This document shows, piece after piece, positions 2,250 through 13,065 of a stretch of 30,091 bases of DNA. The stretch lies in the IMG/VR virus record IMGVR_UViG_3300025529_000005; one strand, 5' to 3'. The stretch comes from an uncultured virus (IMG/VR IMGVR_UViG_3300025529_000005). Taxonomy: Duplodnaviria; Heunggongvirae; Uroviricota; Caudoviricetes. The translations under genes were made by a program, and so were the position numbers. The stretch's first letter is position 1; each line of letters opens with the position of its first letter. The notes beneath the pieces were generated by a model. The model did no database searches and had not been told where the DNA came from. It worked only from the letters and a program-made list of their open reading frames with translations.

Positions 2250-3947
2250 TCATCCTTTCATGAATTCTCGCCATCGGTCCACGACCAGATCGGCAACATT
2301 CTTCTTTTCCCGCAGCGCATCGTATATGTGCTCATCGACAGTACCTTGTGCAAGCAGATAGATATAGGTTACCGGGTACTTTTGCCCGATCCGGTGAATG
2401 CGCGCCTTCGCTTGCTCGTGATTCGCCAGGCTGAAATCCATGCTGTAAAAGATCGCCGTATCCGCCGCAGTCAAGGTGATTCCCAGCCCAGCCGTCTGAA
2501 TCTGCGCAACAAACACTTTCACTTCCGGATTGGTCTGAAAATCCTGCACGGCTTGGCCACGGTCGGCCTGCTTTACGTCGCCCGTAATCACACGGTACCC
2601 GATACCGCGCTTTTCCAGCAGTTTGCCAATCTCTTTGATTTCCGGAATGAACCGGGCAAAGACGACCACTTTCTTGCCGGCGTCTAACAGATCGGTCAGC
2701 AGTTCATCAAATACTTTCAATTTCTCGCTCCCGACCCGATGCACAAAGCCATTTTCGTCGGTGACAAAACCTCCGGTCACCTGGGAAAGCCGCAATAGTT
2801 TGGTCAACACATTCGCCGCCGTGACCGTGCCGCCGGACAGCTCTGCGATTGCTTCTTTTCGCAGTTCGTTGTAGACGTGGCGGGCGTCTTTCTCCAGTTC
2901 GATATAATGCGGTTGCGTGATTTCTTTCGGCAGATCCAGGGCTTCCGCTTTCGTCACTCGAAACGCGATGCTGTGTGCCTTTTTCACCAGTTCGTCGAGT
3001 CGCTGGTATCCGACGATCTTTTTCGGTCCTTGCATCGGACGGCTTTTGTCCAGCGGCACCATTTGCGCGTAACGCGCGCGGAATGCCGTGAAACTCCCGC
3101 CGAAAATCTCTGGTTGCAGAAACTTGTACTGGCTGTAGAAGTCGAGCGGACTTTGCGTGACCGGCGTTCCCGTCAAAATCATCCGGTATGCCGCCAGCTG
3201 CCCGATCCGGTGCAAGCACTTGGACTGTGTTGCCCCTGGCGTTTTGATCCGCTGACTCTCGTCGCAGATGATCATTCCACCGCGGATCCATGCGGCCAGT
3301 TCCTTCTCTACTCGCCATGTGGACTCATAGTTGATCACGGCCACTTGCAGTTTGTCGCCGGGCGGAGGCCACTTTTTCAGCGTCTCCGCCTTTTCTTTGC
3401 TCGACCCTTGCAGGGCAATGACTTCCGTCGGAAAAGCGGCAAACTGTTTAAATTCTTTCGGCCAGACTGTAACAACGGAGGTCGGCGCCACGACCAGCAC
3501 ACGACGCAAACCGTCGTACTTGTATCGGTGTCCCGCGATGGCGATAGCCGTCAAAGTCTTGCCGCAACCCTGCTCCATAAGTGCAGCGAAATTGGGCAGC
3601 GTGATGCCGATCGCAAAAGCACGCTTTTGATGTTCGAATGGTTTGGCCAGGATCGGCATCTCTACATCCGGAACGTTATCACTGTTTTTAATCCGCTGCG
3701 CTTCTTGTTCCCGTTCCTCGATGCGCTGTACTGCCCGCACTGCTTCCGCATCGATGGAAACGGTCGGAAACAAACGACGGATATCCTTGACCACTTCCGG
3801 TCGGACCGGATACGTCCAGGCTTTTTCTGCGCTGTCCCATTTGTAACCGGGAATGTTTTTCGCAAGCTCCCGATCTTCATAGGGACAACGCAGAATGAGA
3901 CGTTGATCTTTGATGCTGACTTTCGGAATATGCAATGCGGTAGACAT
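2250..3947 (-). CDS. SNF2-family (SF2) helicase/ATPase
   Basis: Q motif (PFEHQ), Walker A-like MEQGCGKT, DESQ, LTGTP, motif V TAGLGITLT, motif VI QAKARIHRIGQ. Confidence 0.95.
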   Translation of the reverse strand: MSTALHIPKVSIKDQRLILRCPYEDRELAKNIPGYKWDSAEKAWTYPVRPEVVKDIRRLFPTVSIDAEAVRAVQRIEEREQEAQRIKNSDNVPDVEMPILAKPFEHQKRAFAIGITLPNFAALMEQGCGKTLTAIAIAGHRYKYDGLRRVLVVAPTSVVTVWPKEFKQFAAFPTEVIALQGSSKEKAETLKKWPPPGDKLQVAVINYESTWRVEKELAAWIRGGMIICDESQRIKTPGATQSKCLHRIGQLAAYRMILTGTPVTQSPLDFYSQYKFLQPEIFGGSFTAFRARYAQMVPLDKSRPMQGPKKIVGYQRLDELVKKAHSIAFRVTKAEALDLPKEITQPHYIELEKDARHVYNELRKEAIAELSGGTVTAANVLTKLLRLSQVTGGFVTDENGFVHRVGSEKLKVFDELLTDLLDAGKKVVVFARFIPEIKEIGKLLEKRGIGYRVITGDVKQADRGQAVQDFQTNPEVKVFVAQIQTAGLGITLTAADTAIFYSMDFSLANHEQAKARIHRIGQKYPVTYIYLLAQGTVDEHIYDALREKKNVADLVVDRWREFMKG

Positions 3948-3948
3948 C

Positions 3949-4155
3949 TCAATCCTCCATCCCCGCTACGACTATCCGCGCACCCATGAAGCGCATGAAG
4001 CACACGAAGTCACAGAAGTATTCGCCGCCGCTTTCAACAGCATCATCACCAAGGAAAATTGAGGCGCCGCACGCTTCGCACTTCGCTACGATCGCCGCCG
4101 GCTTCTCCTGCGGATCGGGGAGGCCGACGGCAAAACGATCCAAAGATGGAGCCAT
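3949..4155 (-). CDS. Small Zn-binding phage protein
   Basis: RBS GGAGG; CEACG...FCDFVC cysteine pairs. Confidence 0.75.
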   Translation of the reverse strand: MAPSLDRFAVGLPDPQEKPAAIVAKCEACGASIFLGDDAVESGGEYFCDFVCFMRFMGARIVVAGMED

Positions 4156-5736: not shown

Positions 5737-5948
5737 GTTGATTGAGCCTCCTCGATGGACTCTTTCAAGTCCCACAAATCTTGAATGGTTACATCGATAT
5801 AAAAATCCAAAAATTCCTCTCGGCTAACGATAGTGTCAATGCCGTTTATCTTTATTACATAAGGCCTTTTGTAATCTTGAGCCATTTTCAAAACGCCCGC
5901 GATGTCGTCGATCTTTGTCGTAACCTCAATCTTATTCAAACCTTGCAC
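5721..5948 (-). CDS. Hypothetical protein
   Basis: Fills the gap after the antirepressor; AT-richer than neighbours. Confidence 0.55.
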   Translation of the reverse strand: MQGLNKIEVTTKIDDIAGVLKMAQDYKRPYVIKINGIDTIVSREEFLDFYIDVTIQDLWDLKESIEEAQSTCKSL

Positions 5949-6945: not shown

Positions 6946-6967
6946 ATAAACATTGGAGGGGATAGCG

Positions 6968-7597
6968 TTGAAAAATAAAAGTGCGCGTGAGATTTTAGCC
7001 GAAAATCTTCAAAGGCTAATCGATAGTCGGAAGATTGATCAAAGGGTATTGGCTGAGCATCTAGGCGTCAGTGACTCGGCGGTGTCACAATGGTTAAGTG
7101 GCGATAAGTACCCTCGTATTGATAAAATTCAAAAAATGGCCGACTTTTTCAATGTACCGAAATCAAGAATAACCGAAGAGCAACCAACCAATCTTATTCC
7201 AGCGGGACCCAGAACCGTACCAATTCCTGTTTTAGGAACCGTCGCTTGCGGTGAACCGATCCTAGCTGAACAAAATATTATTGAATATGTGTATGAATCT
7301 CCAGAACGACTACCAGCCGGTAATCTTTTTTACCTTCGAGCCAAAGGCACAAGCATGGAACCTACCATACCTGATGGCTCACTTGTTTTGATACGGCAGC
7401 AACCGAATGTAGAGTCAGGTGCGATCGCTGCTGTAATAGTAAATGACGACACGGAAGCGACACTAAAGCGCATAAAAAAGCAGGGTGATATGATTATCCT
7501 CATGCCGGATAACCCCGAGCACGAGCCGATTGTTATTACACCGGACAGCCCTGCTCGCATTATTGGCCGAGCGGTCCAGGTAACTCAAATACTGTAA
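6968..7597 (+). CDS. CI/LexA-like repressor (HTH + S24 autopeptidase)
   Basis: RBS GGAGGGG, TTG 6968; N-terminal HTH; cleavage site VACG; catalytic GTSM and ATLKR. Confidence 0.95.
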   Translation: MKNKSAREILAENLQRLIDSRKIDQRVLAEHLGVSDSAVSQWLSGDKYPRIDKIQKMADFFNVPKSRITEEQPTNLIPAGPRTVPIPVLGTVACGEPILAEQNIIEYVYESPERLPAGNLFYLRAKGTSMEPTIPDGSLVLIRQQPNVESGAIAAVIVNDDTEATLKRIKKQGDMIILMPDNPEHEPIVITPDSPARIIGRAVQVTQIL

Positions 7598-7608
7598 AGG
7601 AGGTATAG

Positions 7609-8958
7609 ATGATGAGAGCAGCTCTTTACTTGAGAGTATCCACACAAGAACAAACTGAAAACTACAGCATCGAGGCGCAGCGTGAGCGCCTCGAAGCCTA
7701 TTGCAAGTCGAAAGGCTGGACGGTCTATAATGTCTATGTAGATGGCGGATACTCCGGCGCAAACATAAACCGACCGGCATTACAGCAGATGCTCGCCGAT
7801 CTACCCAATATCGATGTTGTCCTCGTCTATCGCCTCGATCGCCTTTCTCGATCACAGCGTGACACACTCACATTAATCGAGGACTACTTCTTAAAAGCTA
7901 ATGTCGACTTTGTCTCCATCACCGAGACGCTGGATACGTCCACGCCGTTTGGCAAAGCCATGATCGGGATCCTGTCCGTCTTTGCTCAACTGGAGCGCGA
8001 GACGATCACTGAGCGTATGAGACTCGGTCAGATCAAACGCGCGGAGGAGGGGCTAGCTGCAATGGGCGGCGACTACGATCCCGCTGGTTACGCTCGACAA
8101 GATGGCAAGCTGATCATCAAACCGGACGAAGCGGAGCACATCCGCACCGCATATAATCTATATGAGCAGCTCCTGTCTATCACCAAAGTCCAGCGGGAGC
8201 TAAAGCGGCTAGGGTACCCGGTCTGGCGGTTTAGACGTTATCGGGATATACTATCCAACCGCTTGTACTGCGGATACGTGAGTTACGCTGGGCAGCACTA
8301 CCGCGGACAACACGAGCCGATTATAAGCGAGGAGCAGTTTGAGCGAGTGCAAGCGCTTTTGAGCCGGCATCGAGGGCATAATGCGCACAAAGCAAAGCAA
8401 AGTTTGTTTTCCGGCCTGATCCGTTGCGGTTGGTGCGGTGAGACTTACGTGTCGTACCATACATCTAAGAGCAAGTACGGCGTATACCGATACTATATTT
8501 GCCGCGCGAAACGTTTCCCAAGCGAGTACGACCGCAAGTGCACTAATCGGACATGGAATGTTAAAAAGTTAGAAGAGATCGTGCAGCATGAGCTAGCTTC
8601 AATTACGCTCGATAAAGAGATGAGTGAGCGTAAATCAAAGAGAATAGATTACAACAAGTTAATAAAAAATGTCGATGTGAAGATCGAGCGAATATTATCG
8701 CTATACGCAGATGGGGGAATAGATCGTACGGCTTTGGATCGGCAAATCGAGAAGCTAAATAGGGAAAAGAATCAGTTGCTACACGATCAGATAAATCAAG
8801 GTGTAGTTGAAAAGAAACGAATCACTAAAGAAGAGTTAGAAAAATACCGGGTAGACCTTACGCGATCCGACTTTGAGACCAAGCAGGCGATCGTTGAAAA
8901 GCTGATAAAATCAATAACCATTAACGATAAATCCGTCTCTATTGAGTGGCTTTTTTAA
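7609..8958 (+). CDS. Large serine recombinase (integrase)
   Basis: YLRVST catalytic Ser, DRLSR, recombinase domain, Zn ribbon CGWCG..YYIC..C, coiled coil. Confidence 0.95.
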   Translation: MMRAALYLRVSTQEQTENYSIEAQRERLEAYCKSKGWTVYNVYVDGGYSGANINRPALQQMLADLPNIDVVLVYRLDRLSRSQRDTLTLIEDYFLKANVDFVSITETLDTSTPFGKAMIGILSVFAQLERETITERMRLGQIKRAEEGLAAMGGDYDPAGYARQDGKLIIKPDEAEHIRTAYNLYEQLLSITKVQRELKRLGYPVWRFRRYRDILSNRLYCGYVSYAGQHYRGQHEPIISEEQFERVQALLSRHRGHNAHKAKQSLFSGLIRCGWCGETYVSYHTSKSKYGVYRYYICRAKRFPSEYDRKCTNRTWNVKKLEEIVQHELASITLDKEMSERKSKRIDYNKLIKNVDVKIERILSLYADGGIDRTALDRQIEKLNREKNQLLHDQINQGVVEKKRITKEELEKYRVDLTRSDFETKQAIVEKLIKSITINDKSVSIEWLF

Positions 8959-8968
8959 TTGCGAAGTC

Positions 8969-9018
8969 TTTACGTATTCATTACTGGCTACTGTGGGAGC
9001 AGGAAACGAGTACGTAAA
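8969..9018. other. attP of the serine integrase (50-bp imperfect inverted repeat)
   Basis: TTTACGTATTCATTACTGGCT-actgtggg-AGCAGGAAACGAGTACGTAAA, 10 bp downstream of the integrase stop; central dinucleotide GT at 8993-8994. Confidence 0.75.
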
Positions 9019-9021
9019 CAG

Positions 9022-9061
9022 AAAATCCCCCGCAGCGGTGCATCCGCTGAAGGGGGATTTT
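9022..9061. terminator. Bidirectional intrinsic terminator between integrase and lipoprotein genes
   Basis: AAAATCCCCC-g-CAGCGG-tgcat-CCGCTG-aa-GGGGGATTTT. Confidence 0.8.
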
Positions 9062-9063
9062 GA

Positions 9064-9615
9064 TTATTGACCAATATCGCTTCTCTCGATCCGCCAGATG
9101 GCTTGCCCGCTTGTGAACGGATTGGAGAAAATGAACTCGTAGTAATCAGAATCAGGAACGTCAAATGCAACTTCACCGCGCATCTTTCGCCCAGGTGCGA
9201 CTTCTCCGTCTAGGGATCCTTTCGCATCTGGGTACAGAGCAATGTCATATGAGTAGCTATCTGCGTCCATCAGTTCCATTTGCATCAAAGTGGAAATATG
9301 TTCCGATTCAGTGCCTACATTCTCGATTGTCAAATCTACCAACAGATATTTATCGTTACTTGGGGTGAAAAATTCTGCCCCCTCTACCTCAGTTACACCG
9401 TGCAGAGTTATATGGAGATCGTCGAATTTAACTGTATCTCCAACCACGAATATCTCTGGTGCATTAGAGACCGGCTCCTCCCCTTTTTGCTCTTGTTTTT
9501 GCTCTTGACTACTCGCGTCTGCAGAATTCGCGCTAGGGTCAACCTTTTCTATGGTTGAGTCGGAGCAACCTACGATTACCATAAAGACTACGATCAGCGC
9601 CAGTATTCTTTTCAT
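9064..9615 (-). CDS. DUF4352-like lipoprotein (candidate superinfection exclusion)
   Basis: Signal peptide with lipobox IVGC; Ig-like domain YLLVDLTIENVG..GEVAPGRKMRGEVAFDVP; RBS GAGGAGG. Confidence 0.85.
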   Translation of the reverse strand: MKRILALIVVFMVIVGCSDSTIEKVDPSANSADASSQEQKQEQKGEEPVSNAPEIFVVGDTVKFDDLHITLHGVTEVEGAEFFTPSNDKYLLVDLTIENVGTESEHISTLMQMELMDADSYSYDIALYPDAKGSLDGEVAPGRKMRGEVAFDVPDSDYYEFIFSNPFTSGQAIWRIERSDIGQ

Positions 9616-9640
9616 CTACTAAACCTCCTCACAATAATAA

Positions 9641-9697
9641 ATCCCCGCGACAGGTGCTTCCTGCTCACGAGGATCGCGTGCCGGTGCTTCCGGCCAC
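9641..9697 (-). promoter_or_regulatory. Structured 5' leader with two GGAAGCACC-capped hairpins
   Basis: GCCGG-AAGCA-CCGGC and ATCCTCGTGA-g-CAGG-AAGCA-CCTG-TCGCGGGGAT followed by a U-rich run. Confidence 0.65.
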
Positions 9698-9703
9698 AAC
9701 ACC

Positions 9704-9732
9704 AATATACAATGTTCGCCATGACTGGTCAA
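9704..9732 (-). promoter_or_regulatory. SigA promoter for the lipoprotein gene
   Basis: TTGACC-17-TATATT. Confidence 0.7.
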
Positions 9733-9881
9733 CCCTTCCCTGCGTTTTCTCGCTGCAACCAAAACCTCTCATATCCCCGCACGCACTTATTGCACCGTTC
9801 GCAGATCAGGACCCTGACACCGTCCGTGATCCAGCGTGGCTTGATGTCAGCTTTACAGTCGCAAACCGGTACTCCGTACAT
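9729..9881 (-). CDS. 50-aa Zn-ribbon-like protein
   Basis: MYGVPVCDCKADIKPRWITDGVRVLICERCNKCVRGYERFWLQRENAGKG; RBS GGGTGA. Confidence 0.5.
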   Translation of the reverse strand: MYGVPVCDCKADIKPRWITDGVRVLICERCNKCVRGYERFWLQRENAGKG

Positions 9882-9919
9882 GTCGATCACCCAAAAAATC
9901 TTTTTAAAAAATTTTTCCT

Positions 9920-9956
9920 TAAATGTATTGCTAACAATACGTTTATGTGATATATT
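9920..9956 (+). promoter_or_regulatory. SigA promoter with an inverted-repeat operator over the -35
   Basis: TTGCTA(9928)-17-TATATT(9951) with extended TG; palindrome TAAATGTATTG-ctaa-CAATACGTTTA (9920-9945); A/T-tract upstream. Confidence 0.75.
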
Positions 9957-9997
9957 ATAAGTGTAAGGAAAACAATACAGTAACGGAGGCGGTAACG

Positions 9998-10396
9998 ATG
10001 AAAAGATTCATTAGGCTTGATGTAAAGGGTACGTGGATGGGACGCGATCATATCAGCACGGCAGGCGATGGATACTACGAAGAGCCAGGCATTTCCTGCT
10101 ATAGATTCGATGCTGAGGGTGTCAAGAACCTCATCAGGTACTGGCGAGAATACTGCTCCAACTACAGAGTTGAGGACTATGTTGACATGCAGCTGACGGT
10201 GTTCGCCGGTGAGTATGTCGGGTGGGGAACAGACGCAGAAGATTGCGCAACCTGTGAGGAGACGCTGGCCGAACTGGCCGGCGCGGAGTTTTACAAAATG
10301 TTCCTTAACCTCGAAAATCGCTGGTTTAACGAGGAGATCACGGAAGACGGGATCTACGAGGAGCTTGCAAAGTGGATTGAGGAGGCGATCGCATGA
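9998..10396 (+). CDS. Acidic hypothetical protein (132 aa), candidate anti-defence protein
   Basis: RBS GGAGG before ATG 9998; about 28 D/E versus 13 K/R. Confidence 0.8.
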   Translation: MKRFIRLDVKGTWMGRDHISTAGDGYYEEPGISCYRFDAEGVKNLIRYWREYCSNYRVEDYVDMQLTVFAGEYVGWGTDAEDCATCEETLAELAGAEFYKMFLNLENRWFNEEITEDGIYEELAKWIEEAIA

Positions 10397-10842
10397 GTCG
10401 CCTCCTCATCAAGGGGTCTGATCCGTCAGAGCTGCTCGATCGGGCCCAGGAACGAGTCGTCGAGCTGGTGGAAGGTGCCGAACGTCTGGAGGTTGACGGT
10501 TTTGAGCGGATCGGCCCGCTGACCCGATATCACTACGAGGTGCAGGATCGTGACATGAACCAGATTGCAAAGGTCACCATCGACGTATATCCCGACGAGG
10601 ACGATGAGCTGATCGCGGAAATCGTCGGAATCCCAGCACCGGCGCCGATCTGGATCGTTTACACCTCACGCGAGGCAGCGCGTCTGTGGAAATTGTCAGA
10701 AAACACGGTCACGCAGTGGTGCAACAGGCGCAGATTCCTACCGTCAGAGGCCCGCAAATCCGAAAAAACCTGGATCGTGTCGCACACGGGTATGGTTCGG
10801 CTGACAGGGAGGGAGCCGGATGATGAGTCTCGAAAAAATTGA
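10393..10842 (+). CDS. Acidic N-terminal domain fused to a C-terminal HTH
   Basis: YTSREAARLWKLSENTVTQWC..EARKSEKTWIVS; ATGA overlap; RBS GGAGG. Confidence 0.85.
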   Translation: MSRLLIKGSDPSELLDRAQERVVELVEGAERLEVDGFERIGPLTRYHYEVQDRDMNQIAKVTIDVYPDEDDELIAEIVGIPAPAPIWIVYTSREAARLWKLSENTVTQWCNRRRFLPSEARKSEKTWIVSHTGMVRLTGREPDDESRKN

Positions 10843-11662
10843 GCGGCGTATGTGGAATGACATGCGCCGCGAATGGGATTTCATCGATAAGATTTATGTC
10901 GATCACGAGGAATTCGAGAGGCTGAAACAAGTCCGGTTGTCACAAGATGAAATATCACCCGTGCTCGAAGCGCTATTTCGACCTGAGAAGAAAATGTTCC
11001 TTGACGACATTGTTTTTATCGTTTCAAAAGACGACAATTTGAAGCGGATTATCCACCTCCACCAGGCTGGGGATGATCGGGCGGCGTTGACCGTCTATGA
11101 CGGTGACGGTCGACTTTTCGGAAAGGCTTCGATCACTATCGACGGCGATCATGTTAACGTCCGACCAGACCCGTCCACCCCAGTCGGTGTGCGATATTTT
11201 GAGCGATATGCGAAAAGCATCGCATCACAAATGCCGATAGGACAGTTGAGCAAGAAAAATCAGTCTGAGATCATTCAGCAGTCCGTCATTCGTCGCATGT
11301 ATCCTCGAATCGAGGAAGTTGTCTATTTTATCCTTAGCGCGATACATCAAGCTCTGACAGCGGTTGAGATCAGGCAAATCGACACCGATGATGAATTGAC
11401 AGGTGAAGAAGCAAAAAAATCTCATACAAGAACACCTCACCTGAAACATCGAGCAGCAAAAAAGCTGCATCGACTTATCTATGAAGGTCGAGCAGTCTCG
11501 AAAAATTTATCGAAAAAACAGTATATCAAACGAGTCGCGGCCTGGAAAGTCCGCGGTCACTACCGCACCTACCCGAGCGGAAAACGTGTGTGGGTCAAAC
11601 CTTACGTCAAGGGCTGGAAATCGGAAAAATTCCGCCCCCTCGGTTCGGAATACAGGTTGTAA
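10820..11662 (+). CDS. Hypothetical phage protein with basic C-terminal VRGHYR..W.KPY.KG motif
   Basis: RBS GGAGGGAG; 280-aa ORF overlapping the HTH gene. Confidence 0.8.
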   Translation: MMSLEKIERRMWNDMRREWDFIDKIYVDHEEFERLKQVRLSQDEISPVLEALFRPEKKMFLDDIVFIVSKDDNLKRIIHLHQAGDDRAALTVYDGDGRLFGKASITIDGDHVNVRPDPSTPVGVRYFERYAKSIASQMPIGQLSKKNQSEIIQQSVIRRMYPRIEEVVYFILSAIHQALTAVEIRQIDTDDELTGEEAKKSHTRTPHLKHRAAKKLHRLIYEGRAVSKNLSKKQYIKRVAAWKVRGHYRTYPSGKRVWVKPYVKGWKSEKFRPLGSEYRL

Positions 11663-11707
11663 GTCAACCTATACAACCGATCGCGAATATGATGTTGCGC
11701 TCAACGT

Positions 11708-11734
11708 TTTCCCGGTATAGACCGGGAAATTTTT
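11708..11734 (+). terminator. Intrinsic terminator of the accessory operon
   Basis: TTTCCCGGT-atag-ACCGGGAAA-TTTTT. Confidence 0.75.
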
Positions 11735-11742
11735 ATCAATTG

Positions 11743-11774
11743 AGGTTGACAGACGTCAACCTGTAGTGTATAAG
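11743..11774 (+). promoter_or_regulatory. Orphan SigA promoter with perfect operator, facing the lysin 3' end
   Basis: AGGTTGAC-agac-GTCAACCT; TTGACA(11746)-17-TATAAG(11769). Confidence 0.55.
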
Positions 11775-11789
11775 CAGGCGGGGAATTGC

Positions 11790-12500
11790 TCATCTACCCA
11801 GTGCTCTGTACAGCATAACCCAAACCTCTTCCCGGGTCACAGGGTCCTGCGGCCGGCTACCATCCGTGATGCCCTGCTCCACCACCCATTTCCGAGCCCG
11901 GTCAAACTCTTCTCGCCAGCCGTTCGGTGACACAGGTGGTTTATACGTGTAACCGGCATGCTGGCAGAATGCCCTGACGGCCGCTTCTGCGTACTCTTTC
12001 CAATTGCGCTCGAGCAGATCCACGTCCGCTGAGTTGGTCGCAAATCCGTATTCGACGATTACCGTGCTGACGACCCCCGTCTCGCGATGCATGAAGTAAT
12101 AGTCAACTTGTGGATTGTTATCAAGTGACTTGCAGAAGACTCTGCGACCAGGCATGCCGGCATCTCTGATCGCGTTATAGATTGCGGTGGCCAGCTTGCC
12201 GTCCGAGTAGATGCTGTGGATCGTCTCCACGCCGCGAGCCGTTGAGCTGCCGGCAGCGTTAATATGATTGCTGATGCAATACTTAGCACCGCTATCACGC
12301 ACGATCTTGGTGCGATCTGCAGGCGATAAATACACGTCTTTGTCACGGGTTAGCGCGACGGGGACGCCAAGTTGCTTAAAGCGGTCGTACTGGTACAAGC
12401 TAATTTGCAGGACGAAATCCTTCTCAGCCCAGCGCTCGGTCGATCCGCCTCCGGGATCCTTGCCGCCGTGGCCAGGGTCGATGATGAGGGTCGGCTTCAT
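11790..12500 (-). CDS. Endolysin, N-acetylmuramoyl-L-alanine amidase (Amidase_3) with short SLH-like C-terminus
   Basis: IIDPGHGGKDPG, EK, SNHINA, IVEYGF; GITDGSRPQDPVTREEVWVMLYR. Confidence 0.95.
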   Translation of the reverse strand: MKPTLIIDPGHGGKDPGGGSTERWAEKDFVLQISLYQYDRFKQLGVPVALTRDKDVYLSPADRTKIVRDSGAKYCISNHINAAGSSTARGVETIHSIYSDGKLATAIYNAIRDAGMPGRRVFCKSLDNNPQVDYYFMHRETGVVSTVIVEYGFATNSADVDLLERNWKEYAEAAVRAFCQHAGYTYKPPVSPNGWREEFDRARKWVVEQGITDGSRPQDPVTREEVWVMLYRALGR

Positions 12501-12901
12501 TTTCCACCGCCCCCCTCGCCTTTACTCCGCAGCACTTCCACCGCCTGCTTAATGATACCAGGGATCGGCGCCCCTAGCCGACCAGCATTCTCGATCAAGC
12601 TCAGCAGCTCATTGGCTAAATAAAAGAAAATAGCAGCATCCCGAAACAGATGCGCCTCTCCTAGCGCAGAATCGACCAAATGAGCGACCGCCACGATCGC
12701 GAAAATCATGACTTTTTTTGCAATACCCCACAGCCCTACGTCACTCCGCAGCTTTCCCTCTTTCGCAGCCGCCAGCACTCCGGAGGTATAGTCTAGTACG
12801 ACGAATGTGAGAAGAATAGACAGCAACGACGACCAACCTCCGAACAAATATGATGTTGCGGCTCCTGCCACACCTATTAAGCCTTTAACGATTGTCTCCA
12901 T
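12497..12901 (-). CDS. Holin (Phage_holin_4_1 type)
   Basis: LFGGW..DYTSGVLAA..GIAKK..FYLANELLSLIENAGRLGAPIP; ATG 12901 with RBS GAGGAG. Confidence 0.92.
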   Translation of the reverse strand: METIVKGLIGVAGAATSYLFGGWSSLLSILLTFVVLDYTSGVLAAAKEGKLRSDVGLWGIAKKVMIFAIVAVAHLVDSALGEAHLFRDAAIFFYLANELLSLIENAGRLGAPIPGIIKQAVEVLRSKGEGGGGK

Positions 12902-12920
12902 TAGGATCACTCTCCTCGTA

Positions 12921-12952
12921 TAAAAAATTAAGAGAGCCGCATCAGCAGCTCT
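12921..12952 (-). terminator. Intrinsic terminator upstream of holin
   Basis: GAGAGCTGC-tgat-GCGGCTCTC-TTAATTTTTT. Confidence 0.6.
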
Positions 12953-13065
12953 CATGATTGACCTTGCGCGTCGAGCTCAGCCTGCACCGCAGCCTTTAGG
13001 TGCTCAGGCACATCCTCGATTGTGATCTTACCGAGCCTGATCTGTAACGCTAAAAACTTAGCCAC
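12952..13065 (-). CDS. CD1375/XkdX-like small tail-associated protein
   Basis: MAKFLALQIRLGKITIEDVPEHLKAAVQAELDAQGQS; RBS GGAGGTG. Confidence 0.7.
   Translation of the reverse strand: MAKFLALQIRLGKITIEDVPEHLKAAVQAELDAQGQS

Follow-up and report, generated by a model that had tools for sequence, protein, structure and literature searches.

Anti-CRISPR-associated (Aca) proteins repress anti-CRISPR (acr) promoters through inverted repeats, and the acrIIA loci of Listeria phages adjoin the lysin gene. Two reports describe the anti-CRISPR protein AcrVA2 as binding the nascent N-terminus of Cas12a and associating with ribosomes and polysomes through its C-terminal part, after which a cellular enzyme degrades the mRNA; the N-termini of the family diverge, and its relatives are mostly found where Cas12a is absent (10.1101/2022.11.29.518452; PMC13728456). 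In the first of these reports, the conserved C-terminal His/Arg residues H286, R288 and H291 of AcrVA2 are needed for mRNA down-regulation, and the relative FinQ lowers F tra mRNA (10.1101/2022.11.29.518452). AcrIF11 is listed as an ADP-ribosyltransferase (ART) anti-CRISPR (PMC8120803). Here we compare with these systems a three-gene cassette (genes A, B and C) in a 30,091-nt stretch of DNA (the window) from the uncultured virus IMGVR_UViG_3300025529_000005 (Caudoviricetes). The window represents the genome of a temperate, siphophage-type virus with Firmicute character. We lean, with a little better than even confidence, towards reading the cassette as an accessory ('moron') operon that represses itself, has the build of an acr-aca operon and serves a temperate Firmicute-type phage in inter-genome conflicts. 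We take it as a probable weapon, either for counter-defence or against other phages, and favour an anti-defence role with a host defence protein as the target. New here are a divergent, compact branch represented by gene C, a readable operator for an HTH_59 regulator and a possible mini-ART partner.

The first-pass annotation, which was made from the sequence alone, had placed in this region a promoter, an inverted repeat, three overlapping genes and a terminator on the strand opposite to the lysis genes. All of these were found at 9920–11737:

9920–11737, plus strand: three-gene cassette, from promoter to terminator
9920–9945, plus strand: operator O1, a 26-bp inverted repeat whose core TGTATTGCTAACAATAC (9924–9940) contains the −35 hexamer
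9928–9956, plus strand: SigA-type promoter, TTGCTA (9928–9933), 17-nt spacer, TATATT (9951–9956), extended TG at 9948–9949
9962–9978, plus strand: operator O2, a second copy in degenerate form (TGTAAGGAAAACAATAC), located between the −10 hexamer and the ribosome-binding site
9998–10396, plus strand: gene A, 132 amino acids, isoelectric point (pI) 4.33, net charge −15, phrog_18831, with a GGAGG Shine-Dalgarno sequence at 9985–9989
10375–10410, plus strand: RNA hairpin at the A/B junction, which pairs the GGAGG of gene B and holds the AUG of gene B in its loop
10393–10842, plus strand: gene B, 149 amino acids, an acidic N-terminal domain (residues 1–85, pI 4.28) followed by a C-terminal HTH_59 domain
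10820–11662, plus strand: gene C, 280 amino acids, a variable head (residues 1–190) and a basic conserved tail (residues 191–280)
11708–11737, plus strand: intrinsic terminator, a 9-bp stem (11708–11729) and a T run

The promoter hexamers match the consensus at 9 of 12 positions. Eight promoter-like sites of this grade were found in 9000–13000 against 3.8 expected, so that the hexamers by themselves are without significance. The region upstream of gene A (9880–9997) is A/T-rich with 30% GC, and here the two arms of O1 (9920–9930 and 9935–9945) are complementary at 10 of 11 positions, are separated by a 4-nt gap and span the −35 hexamer. When the 118-nt A/T-rich region was shuffled 3000 times, 52 of the shuffles held an inverted repeat of this class, so that the repeat, taken alone, has no more than modest significance. 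The 17-nt core with up to two mismatches was matched in the window by O1 and O2 only (four strand-wise matches, 0.39 expected). Inverted repeats with 11-nt arms, at most one mismatch and a gap of 0–8 nt numbered 10 between 5854 and 24499, where 30 Markov simulations gave 2.2 on average; besides those in the cassette, the repeats at 5854, 6396 and 7668 fall in the immunity/integrase region.

The assignment of the palindrome as an operator comes from comparison with other loci. The helix-turn-helix (HTH) domain of gene B was identified in Pfam as HTH_59 (residues 89–141, nt 10657–10815, E 1e-17). HTH_59 proteins standing alone in viral contigs have an HTH 74% identical to that of gene B, and upstream of their genes a TATATT −10 hexamer is flanked by two copies of TGTATTGCAAACAATAC; in these relatives the second copy is intact at the place equivalent to O2, which is degenerate in the window. 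An exact scan of IMG/VR for TGTATTGC[A/T]AACAATAC returned 50 loci, to which an HTH-region profile was then applied. Four of the 50 carry an HTH_59 open reading frame (ORF; E 5e-34 to 5e-36), and in all four (L024, L026, L039 and L044) the operator pair precedes its start by no more than about 90 nt. L026 and L039 are the same contigs as L002 and L003, respectively; L024 and L044 are independent of the first two loci, one being a conjugative-type element and one a phage with the module after an amidase gene, and L024 carries an FtsK-like gene together with Rep. In all four loci the −35 hexamer (TTGC[A/T]A) lies within O1, and the 17-nt spacer and the −10 hexamer are conserved. A fifth match, L048, is a truncated, near-identical copy of the window. 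The remaining 45 matches have no HTH_59 gene and were regarded as chance or unrelated. Taken together, these loci give good comparative evidence, at the level of sequence, for the palindrome as a conserved operator that accompanies the HTH_59 domain, and this supports a gene B product that would repress its own promoter as a dimer. Since the cargo of the four other loci differs from that of the window, we regard HTH domain and operator as a portable module for the control of accessory operons at large. A full-text search for PF20038 or HTH_59 listed one paper, with a single mention of HTH_59, and within that search there was no printed description of this regulator-operator pair. The agr-like cassette found at the other loci, in phages as well as in the conjugative-type element, consists of a multi-pass membrane protein of 202–214 amino acids, an AgrB-like protein of 172–184 amino acids and a protein of 127–130 amino acids.

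In the mechanism that we propose, an extended −10 SigA-type promoter would drive genes A, B and C. The HTH_59 domain of gene B would bind, as a dimer in view of the 7-N3-7 symmetry of the palindrome, to TGTATTG-N3-CAATAC(A) over the −35 hexamer (O1) and to the weaker O2, and would shut the promoter once gene B product accumulates; we infer repression because operator and HTH domain covary. The genes overlap by 4 nt (A/B, ATGA) and 23 nt (B/C). The hairpin at the A/B junction has a folding energy of −22.6 kcal/mol (z −4.0), and none of 200 shuffles folded as well. It hides the Shine-Dalgarno sequence of gene B, so that B is probably translated in coupling with A: by the predicted fold, B would be translated only when ribosomes on A open the hairpin. 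The 56-nt stretch with the terminator folds at −17.4 kcal/mol (z −3.2). A second stable hairpin was seen just inside gene C, at about 10843–10870 (z −3.1 for an 81-nt stretch).

We are fairly confident that gene C belongs to the AcrVA2/FinQ superfamily as a compact and distant branch, outside the family as now profiled. Its tail (residues 191–280) has a pI of 10.6 and a net charge of +18, the head being near-neutral, and contains the motif W242-x-V-R-G-H-x-R ... G254-K ... W258 ... P261. A word-indexed search of 5.8 billion clusters gave seven matches to gene C, of which three were full-length, its own cluster among them, and an exhaustive search gave 182 proteins at E ≤ 1e-3, nine of them at E ≤ 1e-10. 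Among the 150 matches listed, most align to residues ~160–280 only, which, judged by sequence, fits a family with a common tail on varied heads; nine aligned full-length relatives keep W242, V244, R245, G246, H247, R249, G254 and K255. A search for related loci with gene C gave no relative in viral contigs and, in genome contigs, one locus with a C-terminal match only.

The link to AcrVA2 came from several directions. One of the ESM Atlas clusters nearest to gene C carries PF26125 (AcrVA2-like) on 14% of its 392 members. The AlphaFold2 model of gene C, built from 97 sequences, had a predicted local distance difference test score (pLDDT) of 90.3 and a predicted template-modelling score of 0.86, and a Foldseek search of BFVD with this model matched proteins of three phages, namely the 'putative mycothiosynthase' of Erwinia phage RisingSun (E-value 7.1e-5) and those of Yoloswag (1.7e-3) and Dickeya phage JA13 (7.5e-3). 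The same three phages were matched by an annotated Shewanella-phage AcrVA2 in tblastn (8e-8, 4e-6 and 2e-5, respectively), and the genes of RisingSun and JA13 found in this way equal the BFVD matches in length (333 and 347 amino acids). In hhalign, 97 gene C relatives and seven AcrVA2-family proteins aligned at the C-terminal motif only (27 columns, E 8e-4, probability 24.6%), in the register RGHwRtYKSGKk...VWIKPyvKG on raHWHgyW.G...W.ppi.Vn. This pairs R245-G-H247-W/Y-R249...G254...W258...P261 of gene C with R-[GA]-H-W-H...G...W...P, and H247 is then the third residue of the AcrVA2 set H286, R288 and H291. In a shifted register H247-x-R249 may instead fall on H-x-R. Nine full-length gene C relatives (A1) against alignment A6 gave E 0.007 and a probability of 5.5%, and alignment A2 against the single Shewanella AcrVA2 gave six columns and a probability of 2%. 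A Pfam search of gene C and the 97 relatives yielded nothing beyond single chance-level or isolated matches; this negative carries no weight because the positive control, the annotated Shewanella-phage AcrVA2 (P0172), was equally blank.

Gene C may resemble AcrVA2 (Moraxella bovoculi prophage; 7CI1/7CI2; phrog_6160; PF26125) in its predicted succession of helices, a mixed beta/alpha body and a short C-terminal beta module. With AcrVA2 and FinQ it shares a variable N-terminal part, carriage on mobile elements and, as far as the alignment shows, a basic C-terminal motif, R-[GA]-H-W-x-x-Y-x-x-G ... W-x-x-P. By analogy with AcrVA2, its basic tail would probably dock on translating ribosomes and its family-specific head would probably recognise one nascent target protein, whose mRNA would then be destroyed. 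The first-pass annotation had recognised none of the three proteins as a named anti-CRISPR; for gene C this has to be amended, given its relationship by structure and motif to AcrVA2/FinQ. Searches with A, B and C returned no family annotated as anti-CRISPR in PHROGs and nothing meaningful in PADLOC (E ≤ 1), NCBIfam or PDB sequences.

A 229-aa relative of gene C (P0034) combines a gene-C-type C-terminal tail with an N-terminal match to the T4 endoribonuclease RegB (PF10715; 27.5 bits, where the cut-off is 27; E 3.8e-6). It is one of the 97 relatives scanned and hints that tails of this type deliver different effectors to the translation machinery. Gene C homologues in L006 and L007 (47% and 40% identity) lie near terminase and sigma-like genes. 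Ahead of them is a conserved gene of 165–181 amino acids without a Pfam family (L006 7496–7993; L007 6783–7328), and a further small protein is shared more upstream; both are possible alternative partners of the gene C family. In L006 the cluster also contains a RadC-like JAB gene. RadC-like genes are common in anti-defence islands.

For gene A, an ART-like enzyme is about as likely as not, and we treat it as a lead. The model is confident (pLDDT 89.9), and its structural matches are weak and one-sided toward the ART fold (CC0527 4.7; A chains of pertussis toxin, cholera toxin and LT 3.8–3.1). Five homologues of gene A were found in a large sequence collection. Homologues occur in Clostridioides difficile phages (phiCD418, phiCDHM11/13/14 and JD032/JD033), directly after the endolysin, and in the IMG/VR phage L012. 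In nine homologues with 34–98% identity R6, D8, H18, S20, S33, C34, Y35, Y48, E81 and C86 are kept, and H18-x-S20, Y35, Y48, E81, R6 and S33 are invariant in nine of nine. ART pockets for nicotinamide adenine dinucleotide (NAD) are described by H-x-[S/T], an aromatic residue and an acidic or hydrophobic third position (PMC8120803), and the invariant H-x-S, Tyr and Glu of gene A are, by sequence, residues of the kinds that line such pockets. Gene A has no Pfam family, and no ART family is among those that its nine homologues match at E ≤ 10. Its profile gave only chance-level rows against PDB sequences, its model nothing at E ≤ 1e-3 in Foldseek against PDB, and ESM Atlas no usable match. Gene A would be a candidate enzymatic effector with AcrIF11 as precedent, the candidate likeness being that of a small phage-borne ART protein acting enzymatically on a defence protein; AcrIF11 is not among the structural matches listed, and the ART fold of gene A is weakly supported. 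Two near-identical public contigs (L001 and L005, 100% and 99% identity) both stop inside gene A, which they reach from opposite sides, at window positions 10117 and 10174. These ends lie about 57 nt apart and may reflect an assembly break or local strain variation.

The neighbours of the gene A homologues bear on how the operon is put together. In phiCDHM11 and L012 the homologue is the first gene behind a near-consensus promoter (TTGACT-17-TATAAT and TTGACA-17-TATAAT, respectively) with a 7+7 palindrome in the spacer; upstream of phiCDHM11 gp27 the repeat tool reported no inverted repeat of at least 9 nt, and the palindrome there was read by eye. The gene next to the homologue encodes an AP2-domain protein in phiCDHM11 and an HTH_3 protein in L012, and neither gave a BLASTP alignment with gene B at E ≤ 100. 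In L012 a protein with an N-domain and HTH_59 is encoded two genes further on, among unannotated small acidic genes. A full-length homologue of gene B is gp66 of Parageobacillus phage NIIg3.2, which lies beside an ArpU late regulator with unrelated neighbours. As homologues of A, B and C are found apart, we regard the three as separate modules. A first gene that is kept while the regulator behind it is exchanged is what acr-aca operons show, and in this small sample it argues against a co-evolving antitoxin.

As in acr-aca operons, including the acrIIA1-type loci of Listeria, the cassette has an inverted repeat over its promoter, an HTH regulator encoded inside the operon and a small acidic first gene, and it also shares with them the swapped regulators among homologous first genes and the place beside lysis genes. 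It differs in its regulator, which is of the HTH_59/HTH_17 type behind an acidic N-domain and whose relatives control agr-like cassettes. The combination of operator over the promoter and in-operon HTH regulator is present here, and in sequence the layout O1, −10, O2 recurs in four other loci. To that extent the architecture earlier proposed, an autoregulated acr-aca-type cassette, finds good comparative support in the operator that accompanies HTH_59 in those loci. The accompanying expectation that HTH homologues would be found beside known acr genes found no support: the four operator loci are all agr-like, gp66 of NIIg3.2 has unrelated neighbours and the L012 protein lies among unannotated small acidic genes, in what is a small sample.

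Genes on either side of the cassette were assigned as follows, with a SNF2 helicase and a Bro-N antirepressor lying on one flank together with the repressor and integrase genes:

6953–7597: CI/LexA-like S24 repressor
7609–8958: large serine integrase, upstream of the cassette
9064–9615, minus strand: DUF4352 lipoprotein gene (E 1e-24), between integrase and cassette
9729–9890, minus strand: small Cys-rich ORF, 53 amino acids, GTG start, weak match to phrog_29598 (E 6.6e-4)
11790–12500, minus strand: Amidase_3 endolysin
12497–12955, minus strand: holin, followed by tail genes on the minus strand

The cassette thus runs on the strand opposite to the lysis cassette. No more than about 3 kb separate the endolysin from the repressor and integrase genes (6953–12500), so that the window has the circular or replicative gene order and not that of an integrated prophage split at attP. 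The cassette had been placed between attP and the lysin; the lysin side stands, with the endolysin at 11790–12500, and on the other side no att site was identified. AcrVA2-family genes can occupy such a lysin-attP position: in Lactobacillus phage JCL1032 (L017) the AcrVA2-family ORF32 lies between the endolysin and the annotated attP/integrase. Together with a small overlapping ORF33, which has no Pfam family, it forms a terminator-bounded unit (2794–4084). Gene A homologues and one of the HTH/operator cassettes (L044) also come after lysins. The region 9600–11800 had no match by DNA similarity among 50,697 phage records. The lipoprotein at 9064–9615 is likely a surface protein expressed in the lysogen and showed weak N-terminal matches to lipoprotein families, among them Cor, an exclusion lipoprotein, with an E-value of 0.07 that falls far short of the cut-off. 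The ORF at 9729–9890 is divergent from the cassette promoter and could use the same AT-rich control region.

Several results weigh against the reading of the cassette as an acr-aca-like weapon. The cargo behind the operator in all four other loci is an agr-like membrane protein set with no relatives of A or C. Next to the gene C homologues of L006 and L007 genes A and B are absent, so that A, B and C form no obligate system. The other AcrVA2 relative that has been studied, FinQ, acts in exclusion and not in anti-defence, and an ART-fold protein with a DNA-binding neighbour is also the layout of the ParST and Xre-RES toxin-antitoxin (TA) pairs. As for gene C itself, Foldseek against PDB gave nothing at E ≤ 1e-3, and 7CI1 (AcrVA2) was absent at E ≤ 10 when an HMMER profile of the 97 relatives was run against PDB sequences. 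Gene C matches phrog_10678 (E 1.3e-12, residues 194–266) and not the AcrVA2/FinQ family phrog_6160, which was matched by seven of seven AcrVA2-family control proteins (best E 4.7e-107). Ungapped extension of the hhalign register would place W242 and V244 of gene C at the positions of AcrVA2 H286 and R288. Gene C is thus set apart from AcrVA2/FinQ by its length (280 against 322–358 amino acids), its PHROG family and the lack of an HMMER link to 7CI1.

The serious rival, to which we give a minor share of the probability although it would account for much of the same evidence, is a prophage-encoded defence or exclusion system, in which A and B would be a TA or abortive-infection-like pair (an ART-fold toxin with an autorepressing DNA-binding antitoxin) and C would be FinQ-like and, in the lysogen, silence a gene belonging to a rival phage or plasmid. 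Toxin-first order, translational coupling and a partner-bound operator are typical of type II TA systems. With a promoter and terminator of its own, the cassette runs antisense to the late genes and next to a lipoprotein gene, the usual surroundings of lysogen-expressed genes. FinQ, as noted above, lowers F tra mRNA (10.1101/2022.11.29.518452). However, the partner domain does not co-vary with the presumed toxin as it would in a type II TA system: the AP2 and HTH_3 partners in phiCDHM11 and L012 show no BLASTP similarity to B at E ≤ 100, being unrelated to it outside the DNA-binding domain, and swapped regulators fit better. Moreover, A and the N-terminal domain of B are both acidic (pI 4.3 each), none of the three proteins had a PADLOC match at E ≤ 1, and the ART fold on which a toxin would depend is itself a weak lead. 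Compared with ParST, Xre-RES and MbcTA, the cassette has the reverse gene order, and gene B combines its N-domain with a C-terminal HTH_59, with no DUF2384-type domain found.

We consider it rather improbable that the cassette is ordinary lysogenic-conversion or regulatory cargo, with B a repressor for moron control as in the agr-like cassettes and A and C acting on host physiology or phage development. Such a role would agree with the agr-like membrane cassettes driven by the HTH and operator module in four of four other loci, with the full-length B homologue beside ArpU in NIIg3.2 and with the gene C homologues near terminase and sigma-like genes in L006 and L007, but the only relatives of gene C with a known function, by structure and motif, are AcrVA2 and FinQ, and the small-gene cluster of L006 contains the RadC-like JAB gene, of a kind common in anti-defence islands. 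A role of gene B as excisionase or recombination directionality factor for the adjoining serine integrase, by which the cassette would control excision, is very improbable, and we have rejected it. It is suggested by the 'excisionase' label of phrog_2655, which the HTH of gene B matches (E 2.4e-11), by the same annotation of a homologue in Geobacillus virus E2 and by an integrase 1 kb away. That label mirrors the HTH_17/HTH_59 fold only, and the promoter-embedded palindrome is conserved with the HTH in elements with other recombination machinery (e.g. L024). We also know of no recombination directionality factor of a large serine integrase that is an Xis-type HTH protein.

Beyond the self-repressed, acr-aca-like accessory operon that we prefer, a bolder and still speculative proposal would join the three genes. 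Gene C would be a compact, unnamed AcrVA2/FinQ branch in Firmicute phages, its tail (W-x-V-R-G-H-W-R ... G-K ... W ... P) would be a portable ribosome-docking module carried on many unrelated heads, and it would be co-expressed with a new mini-ADP-ribosyltransferase under a new class of Aca-like repressor (HTH_59), the operator of which is legible in the sequence itself. If true, ribosome-coupled, nascent-chain-guided mRNA silencing would be a general modular weapon of mobile elements.

AcrVA2 is, to our knowledge, alone among bacterial proteins in reading a nascent peptide and bringing about the destruction of the mRNA that encodes it. A small relative from a Firmicute phage, with a separable tail and a family-specific head, would offer a tractable model in which to ask which part docks and which selects the target. 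The pair of HTH_59 and its operator would provide a ready-made, sequence-defined repressor/promoter module and a marker for accessory operons in Firmicute mobile elements. Finally, should gene A prove to be an active ADP-ribosyltransferase, operons of this kind would have, following AcrIF11, a second class of enzymatic effector.

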